A DNA stretch of 64,000 bases. Origin: a phage. This document shows, piece after piece, positions 11,259 to 64,000 of the stretch; position 1 is the stretch's first letter, and every line of letters starts with the position of its first letter. Location: sequence record PZ452609.1, one strand, 5' to 3'. The notes under the pieces were generated by a model. The model ran no database searches. It saw nothing but the letters and a program-made list of their open reading frames with translations, and was not told where the DNA came from. The translations under genes and the position numbers were made by a program.

Positions 11259-16642
<5,384 letters not shown>

Positions 16643-18698: not shown

Positions 18699-18798
18699 NN
18701 NNNNNNNNNNNNNNNNNNNNNNNNNNNNNNNNNNNNNNNNNNNNNNNNNNNNNNNNNNNNNNNNNNNNNNNNNNNNNNNNNNNNNNNNNNNNNNNNNN
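18699..18798. other. 100-nt run of N (assembly gap or masked sequence)
   Basis: exactly 100 n characters. Confidence 0.95.
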
Positions 18799-26705: not shown

Positions 26706-27089
26706 TCAAATACCTGTGCAGCTTCTGTTTTCTAAGAAATACTCAACACCATACATAGCTTTTTGCATCAAATCTTCTTTAAACTGGATACGGTGGTTGA
26801 GCATCGCCTGTACATCAATATCATCATGGTGCTTCTCTTTAATATTTGCAGATTGCAGGAAATACTCTGCAAGAACGCGATATTGATAGTCAGTCACCTT
26901 ATCAGTCATCTCTGTCAAAGACTCTTCAGAAATTGGTTTTAGTAGCTCACCATTAGCTAGAGCAACACCTTTTACAATCTGACAAGTATCCTCTGGGACA
27001 CCTGATAAGTTCACATTTGGCAGTTCTGTTGCATTGACTGGTAAATTCATTGCCATAACCATTGCAGCAGCTAATAAAATCTTTTTCAT
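26706..27089 (-). CDS. secreted/periplasmic protein with cleavable signal peptide
   Basis: N-terminus MKKILLAAAMVMAMNLPVNA-TE is a classic Sec signal peptide; 127 aa, two Cys. Confidence 0.45.
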   Translation of the reverse strand: MKKILLAAAMVMAMNLPVNATELPNVNLSGVPEDTCQIVKGVALANGELLKPISEESLTEMTDKVTDYQYRVLAEYFLQSANIKEKHHDDIDVQAMLNHRIQFKEDLMQKAMYGVEYFLENRSCTGI

Positions 27090-27134
27090 AATGACCTCAA
27101 AGTTATATTAAATTTTGTATTACATTGAGTATAA

Positions 27135-27181
27135 AAATAAGCTATAACACCTGACTTGTCAACAGATTTTATAGCTTATTT
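27135..27181 (-). terminator. 13-bp perfect inverted repeat (aaataagctataa / ttatagcttattt), terminator-like on - strand and operator-like
   Basis: stem 27135-47 / 27169-81, 21-nt loop containing ttgaca on - strand; followed on - strand by U-rich tail. Confidence 0.4.
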
Positions 27182-27205
27182 GGCAGATTTTTTATAAGGC
27201 TACTG

Positions 27206-27270
27206 CCATCCTTCCATACCAAACCCGACCTTACCTCACCTTATCTTACCTTACCCCACCCTACCAGACC
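27206..27270. repeat. tandem pentanucleotide array (NNACC)x13 on + strand, nearly G-free
   Basis: atacc aaacc cgacc ttacc tcacc ttatc ttacc ttacc ccacc ctacc agacc read directly. Confidence 0.8.
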
Positions 27271-27348
27271 TCATTAAAAGACCCTCTTCAAAGACCTTTT
27301 AAAAAGGTAAGTCTCATTTTAATGTAGCTGAGACTAACTACCCATACT

Positions 27349-27428
27349 GTACCGCACCTGACCCGACCTGACCAGACCTAACATTACCGTGCCACACCGT
27401 ACCGAACAGAACACTGCCATACCTCACA
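27349..27428. repeat. second tandem pentanucleotide array (NNACC)x16
   Basis: gtacc gcacc tgacc cgacc tgacc agacc ... acacc gtacc ... atacc; each array followed by a hairpin with conserved loop ACCCTCTT. Confidence 0.75.
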
Positions 27429-27495
27429 TCACTTAAAAACCCTCTTAGAAGACTCTTAAGTGATGCTGGTGAGTACCCGTTGGTTTATGCTGCTC

Positions 27496-27523
27496 AGTAT
27501 ACTCACCAAATTTTCTATGTCAA
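27496..27523 (-). promoter_or_regulatory. near-consensus sigma70 promoter TTGACA-N16-TATACT on - strand
   Basis: - strand reads ttgaca tagaaaatttggtgag tatact; fires leftward into repeat region. Confidence 0.5.
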
Positions 27524-27530
27524 CAACTTT

Positions 27531-58544: not shown

Positions 58545-58568
58545 ATTTCTTAAAAGGCTGCTTCGGCG
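58545..58568 (+). terminator. intrinsic terminator (aggcugc-UUCG-gcggccu + T-run)
   Basis: stem with one G-U pair, UUCG loop, TTTTTT. Confidence 0.6.
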
Positions 58569-58579
58569 GCCTTTTTTAT

Positions 58580-58607
58580 TTGTATTTTGTGCAGAGTGCT
58601 GTATAAT
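58580..58607 (+). promoter_or_regulatory. putative promoter TTGTAT-N16-TATAAT
   Basis: perfect -10 tataat 58602-07. Confidence 0.35.
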
Positions 58608-58638
58608 TGATGTCACGATAAACTAAACAGGAGAACCA

Positions 58639-59187
58639 ATGAAGAAATTGATTCTAGGTTTGTGCTTAATGTTTACAGCACACTTATCTTATGCAGTTGA
58701 CTGCCCAGAACTATCAATTAGCCAAAAAGTGAACATGTTAAAAGCTTACCAGTATGGTGAGAATAACATGGGTAAAGGTTGGGGTATCACTCTAGCAGCT
58801 ATAGCCTTACAAGAGTCAGAGTTAGGTCTGAAGGTAGAAAATAAAAAGACCCATGACTATGGTATCTTCCAGAATCACTTGAAGACTGTTGTAAAGCGTA
58901 ACAAAATTAGTCCTAATGTTGCTAAAAAGAAACTCTTAAAAGATTTTGACTATGCCGCAAAAGAAACACATAAAGAGCTTGAGTTTTGGACGAAGGTGCA
59001 TGGTCACCCAAAGTCAAAGAAGACTTTACAAAAAGTTTTAGCATCATATAATGCTGGGTATTCGTACAGAATCCCTAAAGCTAAGAAATATTCTCAAGAT
59101 GTCTATAACAACATGAAAGTTATTGCTCAATGTGAATTTGCAACAAACATTTCTAAGGTAAACCATGAAAAAATTAAAAAAGTCTGA
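58639..59187 (+). CDS. secreted lytic transglycosylase-like protein (putative endolysin)
   Basis: signal peptide MKKLILGLCLMFTAHLSYA; SLT-like core AIALQESELG...DYGIFQ. Confidence 0.5.
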   Translation: MKKLILGLCLMFTAHLSYAVDCPELSISQKVNMLKAYQYGENNMGKGWGITLAAIALQESELGLKVENKKTHDYGIFQNHLKTVVKRNKISPNVAKKKLLKDFDYAAKETHKELEFWTKVHGHPKSKKTLQKVLASYNAGYSYRIPKAKKYSQDVYNNMKVIAQCEFATNISKVNHEKIKKV

Positions 59188-61997: not shown

Positions 61998-62190
61998 CTT
62001 CTGCAAAGACTGTTCTATCGAAATGTTCGGACGTGATACAGGTGACTTAAAAGGTCTTATCACTGAAGATGACTTTAAAGCTGGTTATGCAATGCCAGTA
62101 ATCTGTGAAGGTTGTGGGTGCATCTGGGTAGACCACGAAGGACAACGTGTAAAACCTTCAGAAGACAAAGAATCTTGGGAGAGATGTTAA
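61990..62190 (+). CDS. small zinc-binding protein
   Basis: CKDC ... CEGCGC Cys clusters; RBS agagg. Confidence 0.3.
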   Translation: MADFCKDCSIEMFGRDTGDLKGLITEDDFKAGYAMPVICEGCGCIWVDHEGQRVKPSEDKESWERC

Positions 62191-62976
62191 ATGGGTATTG
62201 TAAAAATAATTAATGGTGATATCTTTGCCGCATTTGATAAAGGTAAGTTTGACATCATCGGTCACGGTTGCAACTGTATGAATTTAATGGGTGCAGGTAT
62301 CGCTGACAAGATTTCTAAACTTTACCCAAAAGCATATGAGACCGATACAGAAGTTTATCTGTATGCAGGTGGTATAGGACACAAACCCTGTGAAAATTTA
62401 CTGGGTAATTTCTCTGTAGCACGTTTAAAACAAGGTCGTATAGCTAACCTTTACACTCAGCTTAAGACTGGTAAAGATGCCCGATACAGTGCTTTAGAGT
62501 CATCTTTGAAACAGCTTAACAGATACTGTGAAGTTAATCAGTTGAAGAAGGTTGGTTTACCTATGATTGGTGCAGGTATCGGTGGACTTGACCCTCAAGC
62601 CGTCACAGTTATCATTAATCAGGTGATGAAGAGTGTAGATGTTTATCTGTATGTCTACGAAGGAGAGATGTACCACAAGTTACGCTCAGGTTGGAATAAC
62701 TACTGTGAACCAGAATACTTTGCAGGTGTAGTAACGTTCAAAGATGATACAGTTACCCTCTTCAGACGAAGAAAAGGTAAGATACATCAAAGTAACCCTC
62801 CGGTTGAGAAGATGTCTCTAAGTAACGCTCTAGTTACCCACCTGTCGAAGAGCAATCACAGGATAGCCGTAACATTTGGCAGTGATGCAGATACATATAT
62901 TTATGCAAGAACTGATGAGGATATCGAGACGGTCTTCTCTTCACCAGAAGTTACCTTCTTAGACGCAAAGAACTAA
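62191..62976 (+). CDS. macro domain-like protein (ADP-ribose binding/processing, putative)
   Basis: N-terminal INGDIFAAF..FDIIGHGCNCMNLMGAGIADKI and later GLPMIGAGIGG resemble macro-domain Gly-rich motifs. Confidence 0.4.
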   Translation: MGIVKIINGDIFAAFDKGKFDIIGHGCNCMNLMGAGIADKISKLYPKAYETDTEVYLYAGGIGHKPCENLLGNFSVARLKQGRIANLYTQLKTGKDARYSALESSLKQLNRYCEVNQLKKVGLPMIGAGIGGLDPQAVTVIINQVMKSVDVYLYVYEGEMYHKLRSGWNNYCEPEYFAGVVTFKDDTVTLFRRRKGKIHQSNPPVEKMSLSNALVTHLSKSNHRIAVTFGSDADTYIYARTDEDIETVFSSPEVTFLDAKN

Positions 62977-63045
62977 GAAACTCTGTATAATATTCACAAT
63001 AGACTAAGCCTTCTTTATCTGGTAAATTTTTCAGGTAAGGAGGGC

Positions 63046-63230
63046 TTTTTCATTTCAGGATTGTGCAGGTAGAGTTCTGTAGAGAAATCTGTAGAGAGAA
63101 TTTTGAACTCCAAAGAGAAAATTCATTTTCAAACTGTGCAGGTAATCTCCAAAGAGCTTTTTCATTTTCAAAACGTGCAGACCCCGCTCAGGTCGGGCAA
63201 GAAAAATCATTTTAGAATCGTGCAGGTAGG
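63046..63230. repeat. four direct repeats of a ~22-nt motif TTCATTT(T)CAnAnnGTGCAGGTA
   Basis: copies at about 63049, 63122, 63162, 63207 with unequal spacing (73, 40, 45 nt). Confidence 0.7.
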
Positions 63231-63404
63231 TTTTTATAGAGAGCCAGACCAACCCCTCTCCCCCTCTTACTCCACCTCTCCCCAAAAGTCAAGAGAAAAA
63301 TTTGTAGCGGGTTGAAAAATAATTCTTGATTTGTGTTCTGTTTTGTGGTAGTCGTGCGCGCCCGTTCATTTCCCAACCTTACAAAAAATATTTAATAAAA
63401 ACCG

Positions 63405-63433
63405 TTGACACGCCAAACAAGTTTACGTACTAT
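63405..63433 (+). promoter_or_regulatory. near-consensus sigma70 promoter TTGACA-N17-TACTAT with A/T-rich UP-like tract
   Basis: -35 63405-10, -10 63428-33, upstream acaaaaaatatttaataaaaa. Confidence 0.55.
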
Positions 63434-63482
63434 TTGCATCAGACGGGCAAGCAAGCCCACTTCCTAAACTGGAGAATCGAAA

Positions 63483-63689
63483 ATGCTTTATAGTCGTGAA
63501 TTGATGGTTACAACTAACGTTAACACAAAGGTAAAACGTTTTTACATGCAAGTATGTGGCGCATGGTCTAGAATATCAGAGGCTGACTATTGCAACTATG
63601 TAGAAACAGCTATAAACTCTAATTGCTACCTTACAAGAAATACAAGAAAGTACATAAGACAGACAGCAGTTTATTACTACGATGCCTAA
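63483..63689 (+). CDS. hypothetical protein
   Basis: 68 aa, RBS ggaga. Confidence 0.35.
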   Translation: MLYSRELMVTTNVNTKVKRFYMQVCGAWSRISEADYCNYVETAINSNCYLTRNTRKYIRQTAVYYYDA

Positions 63690-63780
63690 TAAAGTACTTT
63701 ACAAGGGGCTTAAAAGCTGATATCTTAAGCCCCAGATAAAGAGCTTTACCAAATCAACCCTTAAACTAGGAGATTCAAAA

Positions 63781-64000
63781 ATGGCATATCGTGCACCTAA
63801 ATTCATCAACAAAGACAACTTTCGCAACGCACTGGAGAAGTCACTTGATGAGAATTTTAAAGGTAACGTTATTGTTGTTCACTCGTTTAATTTTAAGTAT
63901 GATATCAATGGGAATAAAATTAACCATTACACGGCGACAATGCTAGATGGTACTCTTTCAAGTGAAAAAGCCATTTTACATGCACTTGCTGGACGTGGTA
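63781..64000 (+). CDS. hypothetical protein, 3'-partial at window edge
   Basis: ATG 63781 with RBS aggag, open to end of window. Confidence 0.35.
   Translation, partial: MAYRAPKFINKDNFRNALEKSLDENFKGNVIVVHSFNFKYDINGNKINHYTATMLDGTLSSEKAILHALAGRG

Follow-up and report, generated by a model that had tools for sequence, protein, structure and literature searches.

A conserved array of four direct repeats behind the macro-domain gene of Felix O1-like phages is likely a protein-binding array

We describe four direct repeats located in the 506-bp gap (62977–63482) behind the macro-domain gene in sequence record PZ452609.1, a stretch of phage DNA of 64,000 nucleotides that is called the window throughout. 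The window belongs to Felixounavirus: its part from 62000 to 64000 is 99.2% identical to Escherichia coli O157 typing phage 1 (TP1, KP869100), and the gap itself shows a 100% match to TP1. The four repeats are likely to represent a cis-acting direct-repeat array bound by a protein, which is a known kind of element, and they are conserved together with their position across genera of the Ounavirinae. The features of the locus are listed here with their coordinates in the window and their strand.

62191–62976, plus strand: macro-domain gene, 261 aa (list of open reading frames, ORFs; Pfam Macro PF01661, E=1e-7)
63006–63050 (63006–63047 in the scan), plus strand: intrinsic terminator with a 17-pair stem, an 8-nt loop and a T-run (terminator scan)
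63045–63071, plus strand: repeat copy 1, cttttTCATTTCaggattGTGCAggta (repeat scans, motif search)
63076–63085 and 63088–63097, plus strand: duplicated TCTGTAGAGA, inside the 73-nt interval between copies 1 and 2
63108–63144, plus strand: repeat copy 2 with upstream CTCCAAAGAG, reading ctccaaagagaaaatTCATTTTcaaactGTGCAggta (repeat scans, alignment)
63147–63183, plus strand: repeat copy 3, ctccaaagagcttttTCATTTTcaaaacGTGCAgacc, with the least canonical 3' end; wV8 has a 2-nt deletion here
63202–63228, plus strand: repeat copy 4, aaaaaTCATTTTagaatcGTGCAggta, the copy aligned by BLAST with an Erwinia phage
63248–63287, plus strand: G-free C/T-rich tract (alignment, run scan)
63264–63292, minus strand: possible leftward sigma-70-type promoter, TTGACT (63287–63292), N17, TAAGAG (63264–63269) (read from the alignment)
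63286–63335, no strand assigned: near-invariant 50-bp block AAAAGTCAAGAGAAAAATTTGTAGCGGGTTGAAAAATAATTCTTGATTTG; 38 of 50 columns (76%) invariant across three genera
63365–63433, plus strand: UP-like stretch and early promoter (promoter scan, alignment)
63483–63689, plus strand: first gene of the early cassettes, 68 aa, accessory, as it is missing from wV8 and many relatives

A preliminary description of this DNA had claimed four direct copies of a ~22-nt motif at irregular spacing, and all four are present where they had been placed or within a few bases of it, with cores at 63050–63068, 63123–63141, 63162–63180 and 63207–63225 that are co-oriented and separated start to start by 73, 39 and 45 nt. 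The copies are real, but the unit is longer than had been claimed, covering ~40 nt, and copies 2 and 3 are preceded by CTCCAAAGRG. Their consensus, W5-TCATTTY-N6-GTGCA, is bipartite: a middle of 6–7 nt is free, the half-sites lie ~13 bp apart, and the A/T run of the unit may be either A5 or T5. The duplicated motif mentioned in the same description was also found, as the two TCTGTAGAGA copies listed above; this duplication is kept in Felixounavirus and only loosely in Mooglevirus.

The motif is essentially confined to this place. TCATTT-N7-GTGCAG has four exact matches in the window, all at the array locus, and when one mismatch is allowed a fifth match appears at 58576, which we count as chance because 0.66 such matches are expected; the 22-mer with at most three mismatches has three matches in the window against 0.00 expected. 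In the complete 88.5-kb genome of TP1, the motif occurs at the array only, four times and on one strand, and every other promoter of the genome lacks it. The array is not a dispersed promoter or terminator motif, because there is one locus per genome. The fifth match, TTATTT-N7-GTGCAG (region 58553–58611), follows a terminator hairpin, overlaps a promoter with a perfect TATAAT and stands upstream of a 182-aa gene at 58639, a context resembling that of copy 1. We also noted that GTGCAGGTA occurs twice inside the macro gene (62565–62578 and ~62286), where it encodes Gly-Ala-Gly-Ile; this is a coding coincidence unconnected to the array.

Conservation in related genomes had been proposed as a check in the preliminary description, and the array proved to be conserved across Ounavirinae genera. 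From 29 IMG/VR contigs we took the sequence that follows the macro gene, and we scanned all viral contigs for two adjacent copies. The array stands directly behind the macro gene in every Ounavirinae match, with eight lineages sampled including Erwinia phages, and the macro gene is its constant left neighbour at every Ounavirinae locus examined. In numbers, 27 of 27 Ounavirinae loci have the array after the macro gene, and it is also present in Si3-like phages, in Erwinia phages (Kolesnikvirus) and in lineage L061, groups in which the macro protein is only 37–45% identical. The start-to-start spacing is 73/39/45 in Felixounavirus and 73–77/39–41/45 in Mooglevirus and Suspvirus (macro protein 64–69% identical); Si3-like phages carry the array with a macro protein of 41% identity, Erwinia phages have four copies at 37/37/39 in the form TCATTTT-N6-GTGCATAG, and L061, with a macro protein of 37% identity, has four matching copies and one degenerate copy. 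When 31 units from the eight lineages were aligned, the eleven core positions had nearly full information content, 2 bits at T-C-A-T-T-T and 1.8–2 bits at G-T-G-C-A, with 0.8–1.3 bits between them. Among 20 gaps of three genera, invariant columns make up 41/44 of the core, 7/28 of the spacer and 57/128 of the other parts of the array (Fisher p=1e-10). Within Felixounavirus, the array cores have a diversity of 0.007, below that of the macro gene both at codon position 2 (0.020) and at codon position 3 (0.140); constraint is thus stronger on the cores than on non-synonymous sites. Judged from these alignments, the two half-sites are under very strong purifying selection across the subfamily. The scanned bacterial genomes, plasmids and other metagenome contigs have no counterpart of the array and gave only unrelated exact tandem duplications. 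One contig (3300045988_004180; L022/L064) switches within its last ~200 nt, at CAGGTCGGG in the interval from copy 3 to copy 4, from phage to unrelated sequence of higher G+C content, which looks like a chimeric join.

Several simple explanations of the repeats can be set aside. An array of clustered regularly interspaced short palindromic repeats (CRISPR) had already been doubted in the preliminary description because of the irregular spacing, and rightly so: the units are 68–89% alike, the spacing of 73/39/45 is irregular and the intervals are orthologously conserved across genera; the sole CRISPR match of the Rfam search was sub-threshold and lay inside the macro gene. Protein-coding repeats were rejected because the spacing differs between genera by 2 or 4 nt (39/41, 73/75/77) and because copy 3 of wV8 has a 2-nt deletion. 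Open frames over the array vary in frame and extent between lineages, and some GenBank records annotate small ORFs in the gap. A structured RNA was rejected by folding z-scores of 0.11 on the plus strand and 0.66 on the minus strand against shuffled controls; Rfam gave no match with E below 0.3 for the gap. Tandem promoters were considered for a weak -35, N17 and TAnnnT in copies 1, 2 and 4, and were rejected because neither copy 3 nor any of the Erwinia-phage copies keeps this register. We also compared the motif by eye with the formats of Tus/Ter, sigma-54, CRP, Fis, NtrC and type I restriction sites as far as we know them, and found no match.

On its left side the array adjoins the intrinsic terminator, which was absent from the preliminary description and whose T-tail merges into copy 1. 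The 3' stem half and the T-tail are near-invariant, and changes occur in the 5' arm opposite the conserved 3' arm; the same structure is present in L008 and the Erwinia phage, and it is annotated as a terminator in AYO145A. On the right side, the predicted early promoter TTGACA-N17-TACTAT (63405–63433; 10/12), which had been pointed out before, is conserved: TTGAC and TAnTAT are kept across three genera, the Erwinia phage has the same arrangement, and a rightward promoter is kept in all lineages. The UP-like A/T tract claimed for it also stands, as an A/T-rich, G-free stretch directly upstream (63365–63403). The possible leftward promoter is less clear-cut. Its -35 is invariant in three genera and its reverse complement forms the left end of the near-invariant 50-bp block; the -10 is poor in the window allele and reads TAGCCT, preceded by TG, in the other allele, and the TA is kept in both. 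The promoter scan called no leftward promoter in the window or in L008, and in the Erwinia phage TTGACG-N18-TATACT (10/12), likewise leftward, stands downstream of the array. Since the leftward -35 and the TA are kept and the Erwinia phage has its 10/12 promoter, a leftward transcript across the array is possible.

In the wider genome, the locus lies at the junction of two gene blocks. On the TP1 map, the macro gene is the final member of a rightward gene run of ~30 kb that includes the helicase, ribonucleotide reductases and genes of nicotinamide adenine dinucleotide (NAD) salvage; the macro-domain protein of the window is identical to its wV8 counterpart. To the right of the gap on the same map there are ~17 small genes at a separation of ~90 nt, each with its own predicted sigma-70 promoter, up to a 1.6-kb non-coding region. 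This early block consists of recurring terminator-plus-promoter modules between small variable genes (from 63690–63760 onward in the window; 4690–8100 in L001), and the 2-kb query 62000–64000 matches 3–7 places per related genome. The repeats of 57 bp and 39 bp published for Felix O1 are reportedly of the same kind as these modules. The block resembles the T4-type promoter early stem-loop (PeSL) cassettes, with terminator/promoter modules around small variable genes; this likeness fits the neighbouring cassettes but not the array, which the genome has only once and which is not a promoter or a terminator. By reverse-transcription PCR of Felix O1, genes 16 and 20–22 of the downstream block belong to the 5-min class, and the temporal regulation is stated in the genome paper as not understood (PMC3185647). 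The window contains 100 N at 18699–18798, where the source scaffold has a gap, and coordinates are offset against TP1 for this reason.

A G-free CT-rich tract had been claimed behind the repeats. It is present as a run of 40 nt, but it had been over-read, since it is not universal. It includes a stretch of 16 pyrimidines (63253–63268), longer than any other in the window, and a G-free run of 40 nt is not extreme, coming about eighth among those of the window. Behind the array, a subset of Felixounavirus as well as Suspvirus, Mooglevirus and Erwinia phages have this tract or an equivalent rich in C and poor in G; in L061 a C-rich tract lies inside the array, and many Felixounaviruses have an unrelated sequence of the same length in its place. 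By this distribution the tract is evidently ancestral but dispensable. In relatives it mostly reads GGGGAGAGGGGGAGTAAGAGGGGGAGAGGGG on the minus strand, a canonical G-quadruplex (G4) motif, and on the plus strand it forms a homopyrimidine mirror repeat, CCCCTCTCCCCCTC-TTA-CTCCCCCTCTCCCC. The canonical motif (four runs of at least 3 G, loops of 1–7 nt) was found in wV8, L013, L018, L021, L025 and L026–L032 and nowhere in the whole window, whose tract reads GGGGAGAGGTGGAGTAAGAGGGGGAGAGGGG with three full G-runs and one bulged run (GGTGG). Among known elements, the tract is similar to G4 and H-DNA mirror repeats such as the mitochondrial conserved sequence block II (CSBII) and the G-run of ColE1 RNA II, in that relatives carry GGGG-N3-GGGGG-N7-GGGGG-N3-GGGG with 14-nt mirror arms, it lies just downstream of a possible promoter and it behaves like a block in sequencing libraries. 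Unlike these, the window copy has an interrupted run and many Felixounaviruses carry the replacement, and the tract is a structure candidate only. In L061, a C-rich patch in the array (~895–915) has an exact Chi octamer, GCTGGTGG, on its G-rich strand, and the Mooglevirus equivalent is GATGGTGG; a Chi-like reading was rejected, since the exact octamer occurs in L061 only, orientation and sequence are inconsistent in other lineages and the occurrence is probably a coincidence.

Several assemblies of related phages have ends in this tract (window 63250–63290), namely L019/L044, L020/L055, L115, L118, L132 and L026 (IMG/VR metagenome 3300045988), and GenBank MT446388 (L003, L006) likewise ends or starts inside it. 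Independent assemblies break at this point. In contig 009833 the Nextera mosaic-end adapter comes right after a terminal CTCTTACTC; contig 004180 opens with the adapter and then CTCTTACTC, i.e., at the same 9-bp Tn5 target, and contig 003641 opens with the adapter and then CCCCAAAAGTC. Two circular assemblies, 001525 and TH10, were opened inside the tract. Two contigs of the same metagenome that have the G4 allele (L013, L027) were assembled through it. The breaks are probably technical, reflecting a G4- or triplex-related dropout in amplification or sequencing by which fragments holding the whole tract were lost, so that only fragments cut within it survived. Indirectly, they point to a stable structure formed by the tract in vitro, and the tract accounts for short-read assemblies of Felix O1-like phages opening or breaking here. 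The locus was rejected as a physical end of the genome or a packaging site: TH10 and contig 001525 are circular assemblies with overlaps of 79 and 55 nt, at the other contig ends there are Nextera adapters joined to Tn5 target sites, and the actual terminal repeat of ~0.6 kb lies ~6.4 kb downstream.

The reading that we prefer, and to which we give about an even chance, is that the four repeats would act in cis, as an array present once per genome whose co-oriented sites are all recognized by one sequence-specific DNA-binding protein. We base it on the invariant half-sites, the free middle, the constant orientation, the single locus and the tolerance to changes in inter-site distance. The site would be bipartite, composed of the A/T run, TCATTTY, six free bases and GTGCA, and its ~1.5–2 helical turns would be read as two base-specific half-sites. 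The binding partner is probably phage-encoded, because nothing similar was found in host genomes. The array stands directly behind the terminator closing the ~30-kb rightward operon for replication and nucleotide metabolism and ahead of the ~17 small early genes, and as a working model the bound protein would build a nucleoprotein complex that marks this junction and may control passage over it, i.e., read-through transcription, the leftward promoter, or replication or DNA entry. The preliminary description had spoken of protein-binding iterons of a replication origin or a regulator array. An iteron-like binding array is likely, but the origin part is weak, failing the tests for a Rep or DNA-binding domain, DnaA, IHF and AT-rich sequence, and a regulator array in the sense of a classical operator set is contradicted by the distances from both nearby promoters, which are too large and vary between genera.

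Some points weigh against a protein-binding array. The flanking genes have no DNA-binding Pfam domain and thus offer no candidate binder. The inter-site spacing is loose, 36–45 nt with additional gaps of 73–77 and 148 nt, and the distance from the array to either promoter varies between genera, a combination that fits neither tightly phased cooperative iterons nor promoter-proximal operators. The near-copy at 58576 follows another terminator and overlaps a promoter, and, provided that the leftward transcript exists, an RNA-level motif would show the same constant orientation of its copies. The Felix O1 genome paper and the other literature searched gave no description of the array, of a Felix O1 origin or of transcriptomes, and the PhageMaP knockout supplement has intergenic scores for T7 only and none for the Felixounavirus Bas63.

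If the array were a replication origin, which we consider unlikely, the repeats would be iterons for a phage initiator or helicase loader, and the flanking promoters and the strand-asymmetric tract would assist initiation; in a variant, priming would occur by an R-loop, e.g., from the leftward transcript, for which ColE1 RNA II, T4 oriF/oriG and mitochondrial CSBII are the known comparisons. Iteron origins such as lambda ori/O, P1 oriR/RepA, R6K/pi and pSC101 have co-oriented, non-palindromic direct repeats of ~19–22 bp at one non-coding locus per replicon, at least three repeats of ~17–22 bp being the usual format, and the array resembles them with its four co-oriented units of 19–22 bp at one locus per genome and with a recognition that looks bipartite, as for two-winged-helix Rep monomers. 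The adjoining purine/pyrimidine-asymmetric tract, G4-competent in most relatives, is consistent with an origin, as are the position between a possible leftward and a strong rightward promoter, the better conservation of the non-coding gap than of the neighbouring genes and the lack of any Felix O1 origin described in the papers searched. Unlike the iteron origins, however, the array has no adjacent or overlapping initiator gene, and its neighbours, the macro-domain protein and small ORFs, are without a Pfam Rep/initiator or DNA-binding domain. Neither the DnaA box TTWTNCACA nor the IHF consensus WATCAANNNNTTR occurs within 62977–63482, and the 40-nt AT maximum of the gap, 75%, is at the 97.8th percentile and does not make an outstanding unwinding element. 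The centre-to-centre distance is 36–45 nt and more against ~22 nt in the known origins, being wide and variable between genera; no plasmid scanned has sequence similarity to the array; the G-rich tract is replaced in many Felixounaviruses; and DNA polymerase and helicase are ~26–30 kb away. In our view, the array is not an iteron origin of the classical type.

AT content in the window peaks at 27.07–27.10 kb, in the replication module, and at 33.06 kb, close to where the GC skew switches (~33 kb). The locus at 27.2 kb is a 440-bp non-coding gap (27090–27530) between minus-strand genes, beside the ligase. It has two blocks (27208–27275 and 27336–27423) of 10-bp-periodic, G-free ACCNNACCNN repeats, each followed by a similar ~35-nt sequence, and the most AT-rich 40–60-nt windows (27072–27099) adjoin it. 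By such sequence measures this locus is a better candidate for an origin or a centromere-like element than the array. The preliminary description had connected the two loci by the shared motif CCAGACC, which is literally present in both (63244; 27264 and 27372), but the sharing links nothing because the window has 13 occurrences of this heptamer, where 4.2 would be expected.

It is quite unlikely that the locus works as a switch or insulator of the phi29 p4/p6 type, in which a regulator at the four sites between the transcription blocks would repress or activate neighbouring promoters, or alternatively would act as a polar roadblock reinforcing the terminator and stopping read-through from the long operon into the early cassettes. 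The array is placed exactly between the terminator and the first early promoter, genes 16 and 20–22 downstream belong to the 5-min class with the timing control stated to be unexplained (PMC3185647), and the number of sites is four as in the phi29 early/late switch region (four p4 sites and the p6 complex), which likewise has T/A-run-rich sites between two temporal blocks. The p4 sites, however, are inverted repeats, CTTTTT-N15-AAAATG, that overlap the regulated promoters, whereas the array sites are asymmetric direct repeats at 30–180 nt or more from the nearest promoter elements, and no p4-like gene was recognized. Between copy 4 and the early promoter's -35 there are ~180 nt, an interval that differs in the Erwinia phage and L061. 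Because none of the other ~16 early promoters has the motif, the array cannot be a general early-gene regulator.

An element acting at the RNA level seems very unlikely. The leftward promoter (TTGACT-N17-TAAGAG, or the TAGCCT allele) would produce a non-coding RNA of ~250–300 nt that carries four UGCAC-N6-RAAAUGA-W5 and binds or titrates an RNA-binding protein, or is antisense to the 3' end of the macro mRNA. The co-orientation of all copies agrees with this, as do the -35 with its A/T-rich upstream block, invariant in three genera, the TA at -12/-11 in both alleles and the 10/12 leftward promoter downstream of the Erwinia array; furthermore, the strong terminator shields the array from transcription of the plus strand. 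Against this stand the window -10, TAAGAG, which has no T at -7, the failure of the scanner to call a leftward promoter in the window or L008, and a promoter-to-array distance that differs by ~100 nt between genera. For the leftward transcript there is no structure signal (z=0.66), no Rfam family and no conserved terminator.

The position of the array on the virion DNA was derived from the records of Ro111lw, wV8 and TP1 and from PhageTerm reports of direct terminal repeats of 613 bp and 581 bp in two Felixounaviruses (PMC6454146, PMC8303462). The Ro111lw record (MH571750) starts in a TGTTAA-rich non-coding region that is repeated at its end and that corresponds to wV8 14351–15041 and to the 1.6-kb gap of TP1, outside the window. 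On this basis, the array is ~6.4 kb from the terminal repeat and ~7.0 kb (~7.9% of the genome) from the right physical end, and the whole early block lies between the array and this end, transcribed towards it. At the Ro111lw start (L005 1–1100), CTTAACA / CTTGTTAA(G) motifs are dense, at 11–12-bp spacing and in both orientations. The TGTTAA direct repeats phased at 11 bp recall ArcA-type response-regulator sites, which we take to be a resemblance only. In L061, a TTAACA-rich stretch (620–760) is found directly downstream of the four-repeat array.

By analogy with T5, the array and the structure-prone tract could be a boundary signal for stepwise genome entry or another end-related process, which is highly improbable, and it is extremely improbable that they serve in particular as an entry pause like that of the T5 first-step transfer, with the right end entering first, a pause at array and tract, and expression of the ~7-kb early block alone until the remaining genome follows. 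The location of the ~0.6-kb terminal repeat, within the 1.6-kb non-coding gap that follows the early block, would suit such a pause, and the tract is ~7.9% of the genome from the right end, the T5 first-step DNA being 7.9%. The T5 injection stop signal in repeat region 3 is similarly a repeat-rich non-coding sequence at the inner edge of a terminal early block, ~8% from the end, and more conserved than the flanking genes (bioRxiv 10.1101/866236). The T5 region differs, however, in its length of ~1.2 kb, its position inside a 10-kb terminal repeat, its paired DnaA boxes and its large inverted repeats; the gap has neither DnaA boxes nor long inverted repeats, its terminal repeat is shorter and distant as described above, and homologues of A1/A2 were not searched for. 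The percentage match may be a coincidence, and there is no experimental hint of stepwise entry in Felix O1-like phages. We know of no two-step entry in Felix O1-like myoviruses. If a pause of this kind were true, these myoviruses would be a second, unrelated case of T5-style first-step transfer, with a simple and mutable stop signal.

Returning to the array of putative protein-binding sites, no other non-coding element found in the region was as constrained by the alignments given above. The array is also a signature of the subfamily, and for this reason it offers a precise and small target for mutagenesis and for pull-down of the binder. For genome engineers, the 506-bp gap that looks empty is unsuitable as a neutral insertion site. 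Felix O1-like phages are classic diagnostic phages of Salmonella and are widespread in biocontrol and therapy cocktails. To our knowledge, their replication origin, the temporal control of their transcription and the order of their DNA entry have not been described, and whether the array proves to be an origin, a switch, an insulator or an entry signal, any outcome would fill a gap in the biology of Felix O1-like phages.

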